The translations under genes and the position numbers were made by a program. A stretch of DNA of 64,000 bases from the NCBI RefSeq assembly GCF_056712565.1, contig NZ_CM160072.1; one strand, written 5' to 3'. Positions 10,598 through 25,823 of the stretch are shown in pieces. Under the pieces are notes generated by a model. That model was given only the letters and a program-made list of their open reading frames with translations, searched no databases and was not told where the DNA came from. How positions within the stretch are numbered: position 1 is the stretch's first letter; each line of letters starts with the position of its first letter.

Positions 10598-11503
10598 CTA
10601 TATTTCCAGACACCTGTTATCACTTAACCCATTACTGGCTTGCTGCCGTAGATATTCCCGTGGCGAGCGATAACCCAGTGCACTATGCGGATGCCATTCG
10701 TTATAATGCTCGAACGCCTCTGCAAGGTTCTTTGCTGCCGTTAACCCGTCTGGTTTGGGCATGACACTGATGTAGTCACGCTTTATCGTTTTCACGAAGC
10801 TCTCTGCTATGCCGTTACTCTCCGGACTCCGCACCGCCGTGCTCTTCGGTTCAAGCCCCAACATCCGGGCAAACTGCCGTGTTTCATTAGCCCGGTAGCA
10901 TGAACCATTATCCGTCAGCCACTCTACTGGAGACGCCGGAAGCTCGTTGCCGAAGCGGCGTTCCACCGCTCCCAGCATGACGTCCTGTACTGTTTCACTG
11001 TTGAAGCCGCCCGTAGTGACCGCCCAGTGCAGTGCCTCACGGTCACAGCAGTCCAGCGCGAACGTGACTCGCAGTTTTTCTCCGTTATCACAGCGGAACT
11101 CGAACCCGTCAGAGCACCATCGCTGATTACTTTCTTTCACAGCCACTCTGCCTGTATGTGCCCGTTTCGATGGCGGTACAGCAGGTTTTCGCTCAAGCAA
11201 CAGCGCATTCTGGCGCATGATCCGGTAAACACGTTTGGCATTGATCGCAGGCATACCATCAAGTTCTGCCTGTCTGCGAAGCAGCGCCCATACCCGACGA
11301 TAACCATACGTGGGCAGCTCTCCGATAACATGGTGTATACGGAGAAGCACATCCGTATCATCAGTGTGACGACTGCGGCGGCCATCCATCCAGTCATCGG
11401 TTCGTCTGAGAATGACGTGCAACTGCGCACGCGACACCCGGAGACAACGGCTGACTAAGCTTACTCCCCATCCCCGGGCAATAAGGGCGCGTGCGCTATC
11501 CAC
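10598..11503 (-). CDS. insD: IS2 transposase InsD (orfB)
   Basis: 301-aa translation ([34 protein letters not shown]...) recognised as IS2 InsD. Confidence 0.85.
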
Positions 11504-11826
11504 TTTTTTGCCCGTCCATATTCAACGGCTTCTTTGAGGAGTTCATTTTCCATCGTTTTCTTGCCGAGCAGGCGCTGGAGTTCTTTAATCTGCTTCATGG
11601 CGGCAGCAAGTTCAGAGGCAGGAACAACCTGTTCTCCGGCGGCGACAGCAGTAAGACTTCCTTCCTGGTATTGCTTACGCCAGAGAAATAACTGGCTGGC
11701 TGCTACACCATGTTGCCGGGCAACGAGGGAGACCGTCATCCCTGGTTCAAAGCTCTGCTGAACAATTGCGATCTTTTCCTGTGTGGTACGCCGTCTGCGT
11801 TTCTCCGGTCCTAAGACATCAATCAT
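11461..11826 (-). CDS. insC: IS2 transposase InsC (orfA)
   Basis: [49 protein letters not shown]... recognised as IS2 InsC (121 aa). Confidence 0.85.
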
Positions 11827-11875
11827 CTGCTCTCCAATGACTAGTCTAAAAACTAGTATTAAGACTATCACTTAA

Positions 11876-12010
11876 ATAAGTGATAGTCCTGATACAAGTT
11901 TTTAGAGTAGTCATTAGTGAACAGATAATTGTTAACTTAGAACCAGTAAAATGCAAACGACGCACCACGCTGGGAAAATCGCTGCTATTCAGCAGAGTTT
12001 TGTACCGAGA
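11876..12010 (+). mobile_element. diverged IS2-like 5' fragment in mirror orientation (head-to-head with the IS2 copy)
   Basis: Sequence from 11876 mirrors the reverse complement of 11830..11875 with a few mismatches, and ORF 11880..12320 begins MIVLIQVFRVVISEQIIVNLEPVKCKRRTT, a diverged echo of the IS2 InsC leader [30 protein letters not shown]. Confidence 0.6.
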
Positions 12011-12548
12011 ATTGTGGCCAGCCACTTATTGCTCTCGCGTAAGCAGGTATCCCCATCGTTTACCAGTCCAGCACATCTTGTGGTCAGACAGAAGAAGAGC
12101 AAACTGTTACTGGACTCACTGCATGCATGGTGGAGAAAAATGCCACGCTATCCAAAAATCCAGACTGGGTGAATGGTTCAGCTGTGTACTGAATCAGTGG
12201 GGCGCACTCTGTTATTACAGTGTTGACGGTCAGGCGGAGGCAGACATAATGCCGCGGAAAAAGCCCTTTGTGCCATCTGTCTCGGAAATAAAAACTCTTA
12301 TGACCTTTGTCAAATATTAAGCCCAAAAAGACCTTACGCAGCTCCGGGAGCTTCGTTATATCGCGGATTAAAGAACCTGAAACAGTCAGACTGTATCTTG
12401 GATTTTACAAACTCTTATTCGGGGATTTTAGCCCCATGACGATTTACGCAGTGAGCTGGCCTCTTTCTACGTGCAGGTATTAGCGCATTCTGGCTTCCCT
12501 GAATTCTTTTACGAGGATCACTCATTCCGTGTCTGACTGCTTCAGGGT

Positions 12549-13682
12549 TTAATTTTGCTTCTGCTGACTGAATGATGATTGGGCAGCAAGTGCAATATCC
12601 CACATAAATCCAGTCAACTCACGAGCCACCGCCGTAATGGCTACTTGTGATTTTTTCCCTTTTGCTGTCAGACTTCGGTAACGAGAACACAATCGTTGTT
12701 GAGCTTTCCATGCAATATCTTTGGAATATTGTGTTACAGAGTCCGGTCGGTAATATATAAGCCATGCCCCAACTTTTGCAGGTGTACGATAAGACCAGGC
12801 GGCTTCGTAAAGCAGACGTCTCAGTTCGCTGTTTCCAACTTTTGTTATTCCTCTGGGACGAATACTGTTTCCACTGGAATATTCACCTGGCACCAGTCCC
12901 AGAAAAGCCATGAGCTGTTTGGGATTGGAAAATCGCGAAAAATCACCCAGTTCAGCAACCAGAGTTATTGCAATTAGCTGACCAACACCTTTAAGAGCCT
13001 GCAACTGGCAGACCAGATTGCACAGAGACCACTCAGGTAACAGGCGAGATATTTCCTGGTCGAGTTGAAGTATGCGATCTTCAATCTGCTCCAGACTTTG
13101 ACAATAGTGTTGAAAAGCAATCTGTTGAGATGGCTGACTAAATGATTGATTAGCTAACCAGGTTCGATGTTTTCCTGTCCAGTGCTTTCCTGCATAATGT
13201 TTGTCTGTTCGCAATAGCATGCTCAGAATTCGCTGTCGGGCAACTCTGCTGTCTCGTTTAGCTGCTGCACGGGCTCTGATTAGATCCCGCATAGCTTCAT
13301 GAGTCAGGTCAGGGATCCAGACAGGGGTAAGTTCTCCAGCCCGCAGTAACCTGGCGAGAGAAATTGCGTCCCGATGATCATTTTTGATTCTGTCTGTCGG
13401 TGATTTTGGTATGCGGGAAGGGGCAATAACCTGGCATTTTATATTCATCGCTGTGAGTTGATGATATAGCCCAAAACCACAGGGGCCAGCCTCATAGCAG
13501 GAAAGAATGTTTCCGTAAAGTCCCTGCAATTTCTGAAATAATCGACGTACAGCCTGGGCTTCGTTGTTAATCGTACCATAATAACGAACTTCGCCAAGCC
13601 GTTCAGGTGCAGCAATAGCAACCGCCAACGTTTCTTTATGCACATCCAGCCCGACGTAAGCCGCAATATTTTCCGAATGCAT
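12549..13682 (-). CDS. IS110-family transposase/recombinase
   Basis: 377 aa, N-terminal AAYVGLDVHKETLAVAI (DEDD RuvC-like fold) and C-terminal domain typical of the IS110 family. Confidence 0.8.
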   Translation of the reverse strand: MHSENIAAYVGLDVHKETLAVAIAAPERLGEVRYYGTINNEAQAVRRLFQKLQGLYGNILSCYEAGPCGFGLYHQLTAMNIKCQVIAPSRIPKSPTDRIKNDHRDAISLARLLRAGELTPVWIPDLTHEAMRDLIRARAAAKRDSRVARQRILSMLLRTDKHYAGKHWTGKHRTWLANQSFSQPSQQIAFQHYCQSLEQIEDRILQLDQEISRLLPEWSLCNLVCQLQALKGVGQLIAITLVAELGDFSRFSNPKQLMAFLGLVPGEYSSGNSIRPRGITKVGNSELRRLLYEAAWSYRTPAKVGAWLIYYRPDSVTQYSKDIAWKAQQRLCSRYRSLTAKGKKSQVAITAVARELTGFMWDIALAAQSSFSQQKQN

Positions 13683-13769
13683 GATGACCTCCTCTGGAAT
13701 ATCCCACCAATGCTATAGTGAGTATATAAAGGTCATATCATCTTTATGTTCTTCGGCGGCGAGCGCAGT

Positions 13770-22349: not shown

Positions 22350-23528
22350 GATAACGGTTCATGTATCCCCTGAGCTGACAGTGTACCGGGTATATTAAGC
22401 GTAACCGACAGGTTCTCCTTCATACCATATTAAATTTTTCCAGGTATTGCCGCTGCCTTATTTCGTCCCATACAGGAAAACTCGTCTGGGTTTCTGACAA
22501 ATACGCGAAACTCACAGCCCCTCAATATCAACCACACGCCGTAAGCCGGTAATACCTGAAAATCAGTCTATTACCGCCCGCGCCTCCGTTACCGAACGCT
22601 CAGGTGACAAGACTGAAGCCAGCACGCACTCGTAAAATTTGCGGTCAGTTCTGCCAGCCGGTTGTCAACGGCAGAGTTAAAGGCTTCCAGCTCCGCAAGG
22701 GTAAGTTTATAACGCGTGTGGGAATTCACTTTTCCCGCGTCTCCTGACGTATTACGGGCTGCCACTTACCTGGTGTCCCGCAATACAGCCTTAGTGTTCC
22801 GTTATCGGGGATCCGGACGCACCGCAACAACCGGGGAAGTATTTCTGGTTAGAGCAGTGTCAAGAGGGATTTCTCAGCCCCTCACTCACCGGCTCAGTCT
22901 CAGGGCAGGAGCATTAATACGCTCAGTTCATGTCTTATACAGGAATGGGCATAGGGGGAGCTGGCGTGTCACTGCTGATTTTACGCATCAGCGTTCATGT
23001 ATTTGCACTCTGATACAGAATGCTTCACAGCGCTCTGTTACCGGAGAGATTTACTCTCTTAGGTTATTCTGGCAAATCCTTTACGTTACTCTCTGATGAC
23101 TTCTTATATTTATAATACCAATCAGACAACCTTATCCCATCGGTGATATCAGTCTCCTGCTCGCCAGGAACGGGCTGACTCACTGTAACCACCTCCGAAA
23201 ACAACTCTGCAATTATCAGAACGCCTGCTTCTCTCCCTGTCCTCACGAAAACTATCCCCTCTTTATCGCGCGTGCGTGCGGAAGCATCTTTTCGCACCCC
23301 CGTTACTTTATTCGTACCCCTTATAATGGGGTGTTAGCCAGCCAGACCCGGCATGATTACTGCCCCCAGTCGTCCATGATCCGGGGGGTGATGTCACCGG
23401 GTCTGGTGGGGCGCTGGTAACCGCTAATAGGGGTCAGGTCAGGCACTTTTGCCGGGACCGTCTGTAACGTGGATGCCGGTACCTGCTCCCCGTGGTTATC
23501 TGGTTAACCCATATACAAGGGAGACAGA

Positions 23529-24725
23529 ATGACCGAATCCAGCGATTACGAATCCGTCCAGGTCTTTATCGGCGTTGATGTCGGTAAAGATACGCATCAC
23601 GCTGTAGCCATTAATCGTTCAGGTAAACGCCTGTTCGATAAAGCATTACCCAACGACGAAAACAAACTCAGGTCGCTAATATCTGACCTGAAACAACATG
23701 GTCAGATACTGCTGGTTGTTGATCAGCCAGCTACCATCGGTGCGTTACCTGTCGCCGTTGCCCGCTCAGAAGGAGTCCTTGTCGGATACCTCCCTGGACT
23801 GGCCATGCGCCGCATAGCCGACTTACACGCCGGTGAAGCTAAAACTGATGCTCGTGACGCTGCCATCATTGCCGAAGCTGCCCGTACCCTGCCTCACGCG
23901 CTACGCACGCTGAAACTGGCTGACGAGCAAATCGCCGAACTCTCCATGCTCTGCGGCTTCGATGATGATCTTGCCGCACAGACAACGCAGGCCAGCAACC
24001 GTATCCGCGGCCTTCTGACCCAGATACATCCGGCACTGGAGCGCGTTCTCGGTCCGAGACTTGATCACCCGGCGGTACTCGATCTTCTCCAGCGATATCC
24101 CTCACCAGAAAAACTCGCTTCGCTGGGTGAGAAGAAGCTGGCAGCCCAGCTCTGCAAACTTGCGCCTCGTCTGGGTAAACGCCTTGCAGCAGACATAGCT
24201 CAGGCACTGGCCGAACAAACCGTCGTCGTTCCCGGCACGAATGCCGCTGCCGTAGTACTGCCACGTCTGGCACTCCAGCTCATCACGCTGCGTAAGCAAA
24301 GAGACGAGGTGGCGCTTGCGGTAGAACAGCGAGTTCTTGCTCACCCTCTTTACCCGGTCCTGACCAGTATGCCCGGAGTCGGTGTCAGGACCGCAGCCAG
24401 ACTCCTCACCGAGGTCGCCTGCCGCGCCTTCGCCTCTGTCGCACATCTCGCTGCTTATGCTGGCCTTGCGCCGGTAACTCGGCGATCCGGCTCGTCAATA
24501 CGCGGTGAGCATCCCTCGCGACGGGGTAATAAAGCTCTCAAACGGGCGTTGTTCCTGTCGGCCTTCGCCGCGCTCAGGGATCCGCTCTCCAGGGCTTACT
24601 ACACCCGCAAAATGAGTCAGGGAAAACGACACAATCAGGCGCTTATCGCCCTGGCGAGACGACGCTGCGACGTTCTGTTCGCCATGATGCGCGACGGGAC
24701 TTTTTATACCCCGCAGGCGTCATAA
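23529..24725 (+). CDS. IS110-family transposase/recombinase (second, unrelated copy)
   Basis: 398 aa, N-terminal VFIGVDVGKDTHHAVAI and C-terminal PGVGVRTAARLL motif typical of the IS110 family. Confidence 0.8.
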   Translation: MTESSDYESVQVFIGVDVGKDTHHAVAINRSGKRLFDKALPNDENKLRSLISDLKQHGQILLVVDQPATIGALPVAVARSEGVLVGYLPGLAMRRIADLHAGEAKTDARDAAIIAEAARTLPHALRTLKLADEQIAELSMLCGFDDDLAAQTTQASNRIRGLLTQIHPALERVLGPRLDHPAVLDLLQRYPSPEKLASLGEKKLAAQLCKLAPRLGKRLAADIAQALAEQTVVVPGTNAAAVVLPRLALQLITLRKQRDEVALAVEQRVLAHPLYPVLTSMPGVGVRTAARLLTEVACRAFASVAHLAAYAGLAPVTRRSGSSIRGEHPSRRGNKALKRALFLSAFAALRDPLSRAYYTRKMSQGKRHNQALIALARRRCDVLFAMMRDGTFYTPQAS

Positions 24726-24920
24726 CATGCTTGACAACTTAATAGGGGCACCCCCCGGGATTCCGCTACGGCTCTGCCATCGCAATCCCCCCGTTTATCT
24801 CCGGACAGCCAGATTCCCGATTATTTTTTACGTTTCTCCCCGGTTGTTATGCCGGTGAAGGTGGCGCGCTGTTTTCATGACCACACCGGCTGGTTTAACA
24901 ACATCCGGAGGAACATTCTC

Positions 24921-25127
24921 ATGGCTACCCCAGTTTCGCTGATGGATGACCAGATGGTCGACATGGCGTTTATCACTCAACTGACCGGCTTAACCGATAA
25001 GTGGTTTTACAAACTCATCAAAGTTGGGGGCTTTCCTGCCCCCATCAAAATGGGGCGCAGCTCCCGCTGGCTGAAAAGTGAAGTGGAAGCCTGGCTGCAG
25101 GCGCGTATTGCACAGTCCCGTCCGTAA
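24921..25127 (+). CDS. AlpA-family prophage transcriptional regulator
   Basis: Short HTH protein ...AFITQLTGLTDKWFYKLIKVGGFPAPIKMGRSSRWLKSEVEAWL typical of AlpA. Confidence 0.65.
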   Translation: MATPVSLMDDQMVDMAFITQLTGLTDKWFYKLIKVGGFPAPIKMGRSSRWLKSEVEAWLQARIAQSRP

Positions 25128-25205
25128 TTTTTAACCACTAACCCTTCGCCCAAAGCAGACGCAATCTCCGGCCTGCCGGCGGCGCTCTGCTGCCTGTTAT
25201 CCCCC

Positions 25206-25823
25206 GTGAGGAATATGAAAATGAAACAACAGTATCAGACCCGTTACGAGCTGCTCCATGAAAACTACCAGAAATGGCTGACCGGCTTCACCCGGCACGC
25301 CGTATCATGGGGCGTGTGTCATCCGAATATCTACTATTTCCATAATCTGACGCCCGGGTGGGTGTCATTCAATGGCGAAAAACCGGAGATTGCCATCGTT
25401 CCCCAGAGTCTGCACCGGCTGATTTATGGTCCGGACAAACGGAGCTCCCCGTCCCTGGATGATGATCTGGTGGTGAATTTATGCACCAGCGAACACCTGC
25501 TGATTCATCATCCGATGCTGGAAGGGATCCTGCTGTCTGAATGTGAGCGCCTGAAGCAACATTCTCTGGCAAACAAACTGATCAGCCTCTTCCGTCAGTT
25601 TGGCGGCACGGAGTTACGTCTCAAACTGGTCTGGCTCTGCTGGCTTGACTTAATGACCGGAAACAGCCTTGACGACTGGACGAAAAACCTGAAACACAAA
25701 TCAGAAAAAGATCTGGAGCAATGGATCATTGCACGTCAGGGTCAGAGTGAACCACTGACAAATCTGATGGATCAGTACGTGCTTATGGCATACCGTACAT
25801 CGGTTGATGCCGCTCACAGTTGA
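25206..25823 (+). CDS. hypothetical protein
   Basis: 205-aa ORF next to the alpA-like gene; no recognisable motif. Confidence 0.35.
   Translation: MRNMKMKQQYQTRYELLHENYQKWLTGFTRHAVSWGVCHPNIYYFHNLTPGWVSFNGEKPEIAIVPQSLHRLIYGPDKRSSPSLDDDLVVNLCTSEHLLIHHPMLEGILLSECERLKQHSLANKLISLFRQFGGTELRLKLVWLCWLDLMTGNSLDDWTKNLKHKSEKDLEQWIIARQGQSEPLTNLMDQYVLMAYRTSVDAAHS

Follow-up and report, generated by a model that had tools for sequence, protein, structure and literature searches.

Intact ISEc20 in an Escherichia coli genomic island holds a conserved structured RNA, a probable bridge RNA, in its left end and belongs to an element that inserts at C runs

We analysed a window of 64,000 nucleotides from contig NZ_CM160072.1 (assembly GCF_056712565.1) and found that its stretch from about 23302 to 24750 is an intact ISEc20, an element of about 1.45 kb in the IS110 subgroup of the IS110 family. 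With a probability of about 0.82, we read it as an insertion sequence (IS) whose DEDD/serine recombinase is guided into a C run by a bridge RNA encoded in its left end, and which has been inherited with the surrounding island. The analysis established the identity and boundaries of the element, its insertion relative to empty sites, the structure of the RNA, the covariation of one guide with the right end and the complementarity of guide and target. The stretch is an ordinary, already catalogued E. coli IS and nothing new in kind.

An IS110-family element had been proposed here in the initial annotation, and Pfam and NCBIfam matches and the RefSeq annotation agree on this. The name rests on the RefSeq label 'IS110-like element ISEc20 family transposase', carried by 100% identical DNA in more than 1,000 genomes. 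The open reading frame (ORF) matched the Pfam families DEDD_Tnp_IS110 (PF01548, E 6.8e-49) and Transposase_20 (PF02371, E 2.9e-21), as well as NCBIfam NF033542, 'IS110 family RNA-guided transposase' (236 bits; cut-off 140). Its product has an N-terminal DEDD/RuvC-like domain and a C-terminal Tnp domain bearing the catalytic serine, the latter homologous to the corresponding domain of the IS621 and ISCro4 recombinases. The C-terminal domain aligned to the IS621 recombinase 8wt6 (E 4.6e-14) with S320 in register with the serine of SGSS, and D17, D65, D107, D110 and S320 are the predicted catalytic residues.

The ends of the element were defined by comparing its junctions across 4 + 10 copies. 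Sequence common to copies in other contexts runs from 23295-23299 to 24755-24756, and copies located in yfaS, on a plasmid and at further sites share exactly 23297/23302 to 24750/24756, with ambiguous C runs flanking the element at both junctions; these copies together with empty sites gave conserved boundaries. The limits first proposed, 23300-24850, were correct on the left within the ambiguous C run, but lay about 95 bp too far on the right, where 24757-24850 is island DNA also found in islands without ISEc20 (L005, L018, L019). The C run at the left junction probably combines element DNA (the circle-junction CCC) with target DNA, and the crossover is not placeable within it. At positions -1 to -4 before GTTAC, C was present in 75, 69, 75 and 69 of 75 unique sites, respectively, and GTTAC itself was invariant across 34 dereplicated homologues; at the other end, CA directly followed ATAGGGG in 56 of 59 right-end sites. 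The non-coding ends measure 227 nt on the left (23302-23528) and 25-31 nt on the right (24726-24750/56). There is no typical target-site duplication, the junctions having only (CA)CCC in common, which empty sites also have a single time. The two ends share no terminal inverted repeat, and a repeat search reported no sub-terminal inverted repeats of 7-17 bp. A left end far longer than the right, together with the lack of sub-terminal repeats, places ISEc20 in the IS110 rather than the IS1111 subgroup.

ISEc20 sits at a C run that precedes an alpA-like regulator gene by about 100 bp. The surrounding genomic island is of the P4 type, belongs to phylogroup-B2 E. coli and is known from uropathogenic and probiotic strains. 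At this same island site, CFT073, Nissle 1917, UTI89, 536 and other strains carry a copy 100% identical to that of the window. The exact protein allele gave only this island context among 80 contigs, and the mobile copies elsewhere, found via other protein alleles, are slightly different (99.5-99.8% identity). These results are consistent with a bridge-RNA IS whose copy in the window is a fixed, immobile resident of the island, perhaps mattering mainly through its effect on the neighbouring alpA-like gene. We nevertheless consider such immobility rather unlikely, since the ORF, the inferred catalytic residues, the RNA and the two termini are all intact and match those of copies elsewhere. In addition, IS110 elements are reported to transpose by copy-out with the donor copy preserved (Sun et al. 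2025), so that fixation would not stop a copy from acting as a source.

The left end encodes a conserved structured RNA on the + strand, at about 23316-23490. A covariance model (R1), built from homologues in Burkholderiales and Actinobacteria only and with the window left out, matched 23334-23490 (+) with 148.5 bits (E 1e-30) over model positions 1-155 of 155; on the minus strand it reached only 22 bits, and no other strong match was present within 64 kb. The same architecture is kept in 34 dereplicated, diverged homologues from these two groups (72-81% protein identity), with compensatory two-sided changes at 18 of 34 scaffold pairs (100 cells) and 95% of cells paired. None of 500 shuffles reached any of these measures, and slid controls gave 5-15 cells. 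The G-U pairs are compatible with the + strand only, which argues for RNA rather than DNA structure. The 5' flank folded better than shuffled sequences (MFE z -2.67) and so did the opposite strand (z -2.77); because these scores fail to separate the strands, the case for structure was put on covariation instead. No Rfam family matched 22500-25500 at E ≤ 1. The initial annotation had described this flank as GC-rich and free of ORFs and had suggested it as the location of a guide RNA. No ORF of at least 50 aa was found in it, and its GC content (0.59) is raised relative to the window (0.50) but not relative to the ORF of the element (0.58). Covariation, the covariance model, guide-to-end covariation and guide-to-target complementarity concur in placing a guide RNA there, in line with the left-end bridge RNA predicted for the ISSfl4/ISEc20 cluster (PMC11208160, suppl. 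file 8).

Table 1. Positions in the window of the features of ISEc20 and its junctions
Feature	Positions	Strand	Basis
Left-junction C run CCCCC, preceded by CA	23297..23301	+	Junction comparison of copies
Left-end terminus GTTACTTTATTC, putative right-donor half-site (RD)	23302..23313	+	First base common to all copies after the C run
5' stem-loop ACCCC-UUAUAAU-GGGGU	23316..23332	+	MFE fold
Bridge RNA core, two stem-enclosed loops	23334..23490	+	Full-length R1 match
Stem A, 5' strand CCAGACCCGG, pairs with 23397-23406 and encloses loop 1	23342..23351	+	Perfect 10-bp inverted repeat
Loop 1, 5' strand UUACUGCCCCCA, left-target guide position, role putative	23357..23368	+	GCCCCC[A/U] nearly invariant
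Loop 1, 3' strand CCGGGGGGUG, candidate right-target guide	23381..23390	+	Antisense to CA-CCCCCC-GG of the right junction
Stem A, 3' strand CCGGGUCUGG	23397..23406	+	Inverted repeat, covariation
Stem C, 5' strand GGGCGC, pairs with 23485-23490 and encloses loop 2	23409..23414	+	Covariation
Loop 2, 5' strand GCUAAUAGGGGUCA, candidate left-donor guide	23423..23436	+	Same sense as right-end terminus TAATAGGGGCA
Loop 2, apical hairpin GGCACUUUUGCC	23442..23453	+	MFE fold
Loop 2, 3' strand GUAACGUGGAUG, candidate right-donor guide	23464..23475	+	Complementary to the circle junction, CA-CCC-GTTAC
Stem C, 3' strand GCUCCC, where the structured RNA ends	23485..23490	+	Covariation, R1 match
Shine-Dalgarno-like AAGGGAGA, 4 nt before ATG	23517..23524	+	Sequence
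Recombinase gene, 398 aa	23529..24725	+	Pfam, NCBIfam, alignment to IS621 recombinase
TTGACA, candidate -35	24731..24736	+	TTGAC[A/G] in nearly all homologues, its distance from the tip constant
Right-end terminus TAATAGGGGCA, putative left-donor half-site plus CA	24740..24750	+	Common to all copies
C6 run, target right half-site, host rather than element DNA	24751..24756	+	Also in IS-free sister islands

The individual helices (Table 1) bear out the fold. Pairs of the 5' stem-loop (helix 1) change on both sides in homologues, for example to CCUC/GAGG and CCUU/AAGG, and stem A (helix 2) showed compensatory changes at 7 of 15 pairs with 98.4% of cells paired. Stem C (helix 3) has four consecutive pairs, each with 7-11 compensatory sequences, and the apical hairpin of loop 2 (helix 4) varies in sequence and length among homologues with its pairing retained.

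Loop 2 matches the ends of the element itself. Its left-donor guide strand is identical over 9 nt to 24741-24749 at the right end. In a guide-versus-end comparison in which the right-end motif was located with a distance constraint, AUAGGGG of the RNA and its counterpart at the right end changed together at two positions in three lineages, reading ATAGGGA in beta-proteobacterial and actinobacterial lineages and ATAGAGG in Arthrobacter; the G-to-A variant of this guide also retains an intramolecular pair (G-U to A-U). The right-donor guide, GUAACG(U)GG(A)UG, is complementary to the junction CA-CCC-GTTAC (23294-23306) if two RNA bases bulge out; this junction was deduced from two pairs of empty and occupied sites. 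Both GUAACG and CGTTAC were invariant in the 34 homologues, so this match is one of complementarity only and not of covariation. The guide segments are almost invariant across homologues in general, and most guide-DNA matches therefore rest on complementarity.

Loop 1 matches the target and would direct ISEc20 into runs of at least six C. The right-target guide is complementary at 10 of 10 positions to 24749-24758 (CA-C6-GG). Among 59 unique right flanks, CA was followed by C6, with C in 52-59 of 59 at the six positions after CA, and the departures from C were mostly T, which would fit the rG:dT wobble described for IS621 (PMC11208160). At a single locus (L061), the guide CCGGGGUGUG, with a G-to-U change, occurred together with the matching C-to-A flank CA-CACCCC. 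Empty sites identify the target as the C run: in yfaS, the empty GAT-CA-C7-ACGG corresponds to the occupied GATCA-CCC-GTTAC...GGGGCA-C7-ACGG; upstream of flhD, the empty GCAG-C6-TCC corresponds to GCAG-C6-GTTAC...GGGGCA-CCC-TCC; and the sister islands L005, L018 and L019, with a 100% identical left flank, have CA-C6 and no ISEc20. The frmR-yaiO site (L106) could not be reconciled with K-12, which has C10 there against a predicted C6, and homopolymer length evidently varies between strains; for rtcB and focA, exact matching located no anchors in K-12. ISEc20 lies at C runs across E. coli genomes (yfaS, rtcB, upstream of flhD, focA, prophages and plasmids), and the + strand of the 64 kb has only five runs of at least six C.

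The left side of the target gave a different picture. The conserved GCCCCCA on the 5' side of loop 1 would be expected to specify the left target. No left-target signal was present in 75 left flanks beyond C at -4 and -5, G before the C run occurred at composition level, and the left-target guide showed no covariation with the base before the run, at the loop 1 'nnn' positions or in the variant guides of L020 and L068. The four guide strands end in CA, UG, CA and UG, and the donor has CA; under a CA register most target cores would be CC, and a core within the common CCC fits the sites equally. We first read a CC core with boundaries at 23300/24756 and then CA duplicated at both junctions; the left flanks of the 75 sites are without CA, so that neither register could be fixed.

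The lack of a left-target match is also what would be seen if the 5' structure were a cis-acting leader of the transposase mRNA, or a set of recombinase-binding repeats in DNA, with the protein itself choosing C runs. The structure immediately precedes the ORF and shares its strand, as such a role would have it, the candidate guide strands could pair mutually in free RNA (98% of cells pair), and neither a promoter nor a 3' end of the RNA was defined. A leader function, however, needs no joint change of right end and loop 2, as seen at two positions in three lineages, nor does it account for the full complement between loop 1 and the target with its compensatory variant in L061. The mostly-T departures in the C run fit pairing with RNA G, and the G-U pairs favour RNA over DNA structure. 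Moreover, the architecture is that of the IS621 bridge RNAs, which are proven by experiment (PMC11208160), and the recombinases of the two elements are homologous. We therefore regard a leader or a protein-binding structure as improbable.

In the bridge-RNA reading, an RNA of about 175-190 nt would be transcribed from the same strand as the recombinase gene, folding into a 5' hairpin and two internal loops, each closed by a stem. On the model of IS621, ISEc20 would leave as, or be copied into, a circle with the junction ...TAATAGGGG-CA-CCC-GTTACTTT..., which loop 2, as the donor-binding loop, would hold. The recombinase would then exchange strands within (CA)CCC, the short sequence common to donor and target. 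The element would have landed in this way at the C run upstream of the alpA-like gene and afterwards been inherited with the island. A scan of the integrated ISEc20 for sigma-70 and terminator consensus sequences found no promoter; in the CA-CCC-GTTAC junction, TTGACA would sit 17 nt before GTTACT, a weak -10, and would be a candidate -35 of a promoter that only circularisation completes.

Comparison with IS621 revealed a common plan with a different target logic. Both elements belong to the IS110 subgroup with a long left and a short right non-coding end (PMC11208160, PMC11208158), encode a DEDD and serine recombinase with a homologous C-terminal domain (8wt6, E 4.6e-14), and have a left-end RNA in which a 5' hairpin is combined with two stem-enclosed loops. 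As in IS621, the 5' strand of each ISEc20 loop would be same-sense and the 3' strand antisense to DNA, and the right-donor guide seems to pair discontiguously, with rG:dT apparently tolerated. The ISEc20 protein is longer (398 aa versus 326 aa), the N-terminal domains barely align, and the second acidic residue is D in ISEc20 and E in IS621. The IS621 target guides measure 9 nt on the left and 4 nt on the right, whereas ISEc20 would recognise a homopolymeric C run mainly through a right-target guide of 8-10 nt, with no left-target match detected; the core is CT in IS621 and not CT but CA or CC in ISEc20. The guide roles of IS621 are experimentally proven, whereas those of ISEc20 are read from sequence.

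Among other relatives, the recombinase cluster that holds ISEc20 also includes IS110 (Streptomyces), ISSfl4, ISBma3, ISAar2 and others (PMC11208160, suppl. files 4, 8), and the homologues in Burkholderia, Microbacterium and Arthrobacter fit this cluster. We found no ISEc20 guide, end or target sequences in the supplementary text of Durrant et al. 2024, and our literature search on ISEc20 and ISSfl4 found only epidemiology or plasmid papers. Elements of the IS1111 subgroup (ISEc11, IS4321/IS5075) belong to the same family and use the same kind of RNA-guided recombination, but have their guide (seek) RNA in a long right end and 7-17-bp sub-terminal inverted repeats, both of which ISEc20 lacks. 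ISPpu10, like ISEc20 of the IS110 subgroup, is a bridge recombinase with atypical recognition logic (bioRxiv 10.64898/2026.03.19.712850); it has no 5' stem-loop and needs a target-DNA hairpin, whereas ISEc20 keeps the 5' stem-loop and targets a C run.

The window holds a second IS110-family element, ISEc45 (about 12303-13741, minus strand), roughly 10 kb from ISEc20. The two are unrelated in sequence, as the initial annotation had stated: a tblastn search of the window with the ISEc20 transposase (E ≤ 10) matched only itself. Its further proposal that the region is repeatedly targeted by IS110-family elements did not hold. Although the two elements lie within 11 kb of each other, repeated targeting is highly improbable, given that their proteins are unrelated, their targets differ (a C run versus the A/T-rich AAAAACT(C)TTATG of ISEc45), Nissle has ISEc20 but not ISEc45, the C6 run is unoccupied in sister islands, and C-run insertions of ISEc20 occur all over E. 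coli genomes rather than specifically in the island. Remnants of IS2, IS66, ISL3, IS100 and IS21 in the same island point to ordinary IS accumulation.

For the window, a catalogued IS in a well-known E. coli island, these results change the annotation little, and the class of IS110 guide RNAs has been established since 2024. The modest addition is a guide map for ISEc20 with a predicted donor ATAGGGG-CA-CCC-GTTAC and target (CA)C6, which explains the presence of the element at C runs in yfaS, upstream of flhD, in rtcB and in the region upstream of alpA, and which corrects the idea of an island specially targeted by IS110 elements. More tentatively, and with somewhat less than even confidence, we suggest that the ISEc20/IS110-type clade is a natural 'poly-C-seeking' bridge recombinase, with near-invariant guides from Enterobacteria to Burkholderiales and Actinobacteria, recognition almost entirely through a long right-target guide (G6 and the bases beside it), left-target pairing that is slight or absent and, in place of a 2-nt core, an extended crossover region, CACCC, common to donor and target. 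If so, its logic would be unlike that of IS621, and the element would be aimed at homopolymeric C tracts that are often phase-variable or regulatory, such as that upstream of flhDC. A right-target-dominant, homopolymer-seeking system of this kind would also offer a useful natural contrast to IS621 for bridge-recombinase engineering.

The element was a real, intact ISEc20 with a bridge RNA at its left end, and the initial annotation had correctly recognised it as a member of the IS110 family, as confirmed by Pfam, NCBIfam and identity to annotated ISEc20. Its kind is already known and ISEc20 is routinely annotated; left-end RNA placement was predicted for its cluster in 2024 (PMC11208160). The recombinase contained DEDD_Tnp_IS110 (residues 14-168, E 6.8e-49) and Transposase_20 (residues 277-358, E 2.9e-21) domains in Pfam and scored 236 bits against the NCBIfam model 'IS110 family RNA-guided transposase' (cut-off 140). 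Its C-terminal domain aligned with the solved IS621 (E 4.6e-14) and ISCro4 (E 8.3e-12) recombinases, placing the SGSS catalytic serine in register, and we infer that D17, D65, D107, D110 and S320 are the catalytic residues. The segment 23200-24950 was 100% identical to CFT073, Nissle 1917, UTI89, 536, ABU 83972 and other genomes, where the gene is labelled 'IS110-like element ISEc20 family transposase', and 1,119 of 5,426 complete E. coli genomes carried a near-full-length copy.

Features of ISEc20, its proposed guide strands and neighbouring elements in the window
Feature	Coordinates	Strand	Description
IS2 TnpB ORF	10598-11503		713 bits
ISEc45	12303-13741	-	other IS110-family element; absent from Nissle 1917
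ISEc45 ORF	12549-13682	-	NF033542, E 5.8e-83
Loop 1, 5' strand UUACUGCCCCCA	23357-23368	+	expected place of left-target guide
Loop 1, 3' strand CCGGGGGGUG	23381-23390	+	complementary at 10 of 10 nt to CACCCCCCGG (24749-24758)
Loop 2, 5' strand GCUAAUAGGGGUCA	23423-23436	+	repeats right-end tip TAATAGGGGCA (24740-24750)
Loop 2, 3' strand GUAACGUGGAUG	23464-23475	+	invariant among homologues
IS110-family recombinase ORF	23529-24725	+	398 aa; Pfam and NCBIfam

Comparative genomics, proposed in the initial annotation for defining the ends, located conserved boundaries with the same termini in all copies. We compared copies in varied contexts, among them the yfaS alpha-2-macroglobulin gene of O55:H7, a CFA/I plasmid and another ten chromosomal sites. 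Every copy had the form C(3-6)-GTTACTTTATTC ... CTTAATAGGGG-CA-C(4-8), with a constant spacing of 1447 nt from GTTAC to GGGG (1446 nt in the 1-nt-deletion copies L003 and L004/L111/L112). Because similarity between these unrelated contexts and the window was limited to 23295-23299 through 24755-24756, the left end first placed at 23300 was right, while the right end at 24850 lay too far and included ~95 bp of island DNA that related islands lacking the IS (L005, L017-L019) also carried.

The 227 nt from the left terminus to the ATG contained no ORF and had a GC content of 0.59 (window, 0.50; ORF, 0.58). An alignment of 34 dereplicated homologues of this region revealed near-invariant blocks, variable but still paired stems and a variable apical hairpin, with compensatory change at 17 pairs by RNAalifold. 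For a specified scaffold of 5' hairpin, stem A, stem C and apical hairpin, pairing was kept in 95.1% of cells across the 34 homologues, and both sides changed in 18 of 34 pairs (100 cells). None of 500 shuffles matched this scaffold on any measure, and sliding the partners by 1-3 columns lowered the double-change cells to 5-15. G-U pairs were frequent in the scaffold; read from the opposite strand they would become A-C. The covariance-model search suggested in the initial annotation, using 33 homologues and leaving out both the window and the closely related L033, recovered a structured RNA end to end at 23334-23490 on the plus strand (148.5 bits, E 1e-30), compared to 22 bits on the minus strand. 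No other scoring match was found in the window, ISEc45 included, and Rfam 15 held no matching family. The covariation and this match bear out the ORF-free 5' flank as the guide RNA site.

No consensus promoter was found in integrated ISEc20. A TTGACA in the right end (24731-24736) was conserved among homologues; in a CA-CCC-GTTAC circle it would lie 17 nt before GTTACT, which would serve as a weak -10, and the RNA would start just before the 5' hairpin. A perfect TATAAT was present at 23322-23327, inside the 5'-hairpin loop, with no matching -35 found; proteobacterial homologues carried GATAAT or ACAATA at this position, and it was absent in actinobacterial ones.

The way each loop of the IS621 bridge RNA reads DNA was shown by Durrant et al., with the core part of all four guide pairings (PMC11208160). 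In loop 2 (stem C), the proposed donor-binding loop of ISEc20, the 5' strand and the right end changed together among homologues: the two carried ATAGGGA in one beta-proteobacterial group (L021, L036, L068) and one actinobacterial group (L023, L029-L032), and ATAGAGG in Arthrobacter (L085-L092). The 3' strand complements CA-CCC-GTTAC if two RNA bases bulge, resembling the discontiguous pairing of the IS621 right-donor guide. Loop 2 fits an IS621-type donor reading.

At 59 unique right junctions, ATAGGGG was followed by C in all 59 and then A in 56, and the run after CA had C at 59, 56, 57, 55, 55 and 52 of 59, non-C bases being mostly T. At 75 unique left junctions, positions -1 to -4 before GTTAC were C in 75, 69, 75 and 69, and -5 in 43, with no conserved position upstream of the run. 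A G before the left run (37/75) was rejected as a signal, since GC-rich genome composition gives the same frequency. The G6 of the guide in loop 1 (stem A), the proposed target-binding loop, corresponded to the C6 consensus across the family's sites, and the departures, mostly T, are expected if the top strand is read by an RNA G; such rG:dT pairing was noted for IS621 (PMC11208160). In homologue L061, the guide was CCGGGGUGUG and the flank CA-CACCCC. Loop 1 fits this reading for the right half of the target. Its 5' strand showed neither covariation with left flanks nor any correspondence to them beyond a C or two. The guide strands were nearly invariant, and in unbound RNA they could also base-pair with one another. 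Each of the four terminated in CA or UG. With the register set on the donor's CA, most targets read CC, whereas a core placed within the common CCC agrees between all donors and targets examined. The core position, CA or within CCC, is ambiguous. A variant loop-1 guide, CCGGGGGGGGAUG (U to G, giving G8), was present in L033 and L004/L111/L112 (plasmid, ATCC 43896); the ATCC 43896 plasmid copy had the right-end variant AATCGGGGCA, and its reconstructed target would be a C8 run (GGAATT-C8-AAAAAA). This guide/target map and the C-run specificity are computational and were not found in the literature searched.

The empty yfaS site read GGTGTTGAT-CA-CCCCCCC-ACGG and the occupied one (L109) GATCA-CCC-GTTAC...GGGGCA-CCCCCCC-ACGG. 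Upstream of flhD, the K-12 site (L113, 1978.2-1978.5 kb region) read GCAG-CCCCCC-TCC, and the copy in this C6-TCC tract in GCA_045344835.1 (L102) read GCAG-CCCCCC-GTTAC...GGGGCA-CCC-TCC. IS insertions in this regulatory region upstream of flhD are known to alter motility. A circular donor junction GGGG-CA-CCC-GTTAC accounts for both pairs; it would recombine inside a short stretch common with the target, (CA)CCC. Sister islands L018 and L019, whose 197-nt left flank was 100% identical, carried CGCAA-CA-CCCCCC-TCCGGGATT without the IS; the window's own ancestral allele was not among these recovered empty sites. The insertion point (23290-23301 / 24749-24760) was hypervariable among island paralogues L005, L017, L018 and L019, within flanks otherwise 92-100% identical. 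The paralogues read CGCAACA-C6-TCCGGGATT, CGCAACAA-C6-GGGATT and CGCAACAACCACCCGGTATACC, against CGCA-C5...C6-GGGATT in the window; four alleles were seen. A second C6 run at 24787-24801, 30 bp downstream of the IS, was followed by GTTTATCT, resembling the left end (C5-GTTACTTTATTC); it is host DNA, because IS-free islands carry the same stretch, and may be a further potential target or a coincidence. C runs of at least 6 were rare: the 64-kb window held five on the plus strand and six on the minus strand, one of the latter being the element's own G6.

The window was collinear with Nissle 1917 except for ~3.1 kb (10588-13741) that held an IS2 fragment and ISEc45. The IS2-derived insertion (1278 bp, 10588-11865) replaced ~177 bp of Nissle sequence and adjoined an IS66 remnant. 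The recombinases of ISEc45 and ISEc20 had no detectable similarity, in agreement with the initial view of two unrelated IS110 elements. ISEc45 had non-coding ends of 59 nt (5') and 246 nt (3'), the reverse of the ISEc20 arrangement, suggesting a putative IS1111-type guide RNA encoded at the right end. Its site was A/T-rich (empty, AAAAACTTTATG; occupied, AAAAACTCTTATGACC...CATATCATCTTTATG), and remnants of IS66, ISL3, IS100 and IS21 lay in the island. ISEc20 copies occurred at C runs all over E. coli genomes; the two IS110 elements here therefore represent IS accumulation, and the repeated targeting of the region proposed initially was not borne out. ISEc20 sits 93-165 bp upstream of an alpA-like helix-turn-helix regulator gene (24849-25127; annotated start, 24921) of this P4-type island.

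A one-genome-per-species scan identified 80 loci with proteins 72-81% identical in Burkholderiales and several actinobacterial families (L020-L099; Microbacterium, Arthrobacter, Cryobacterium and others), and one Enterobacterales MAG (93%). Many homologues appeared as collapsed single-IS contigs of 1456-1464 bp, and all the loci shared the same termini. The near-invariant guide segments shared by Burkholderiales and actinobacteria imply recent cross-phylum spread with the same C-run specificity.
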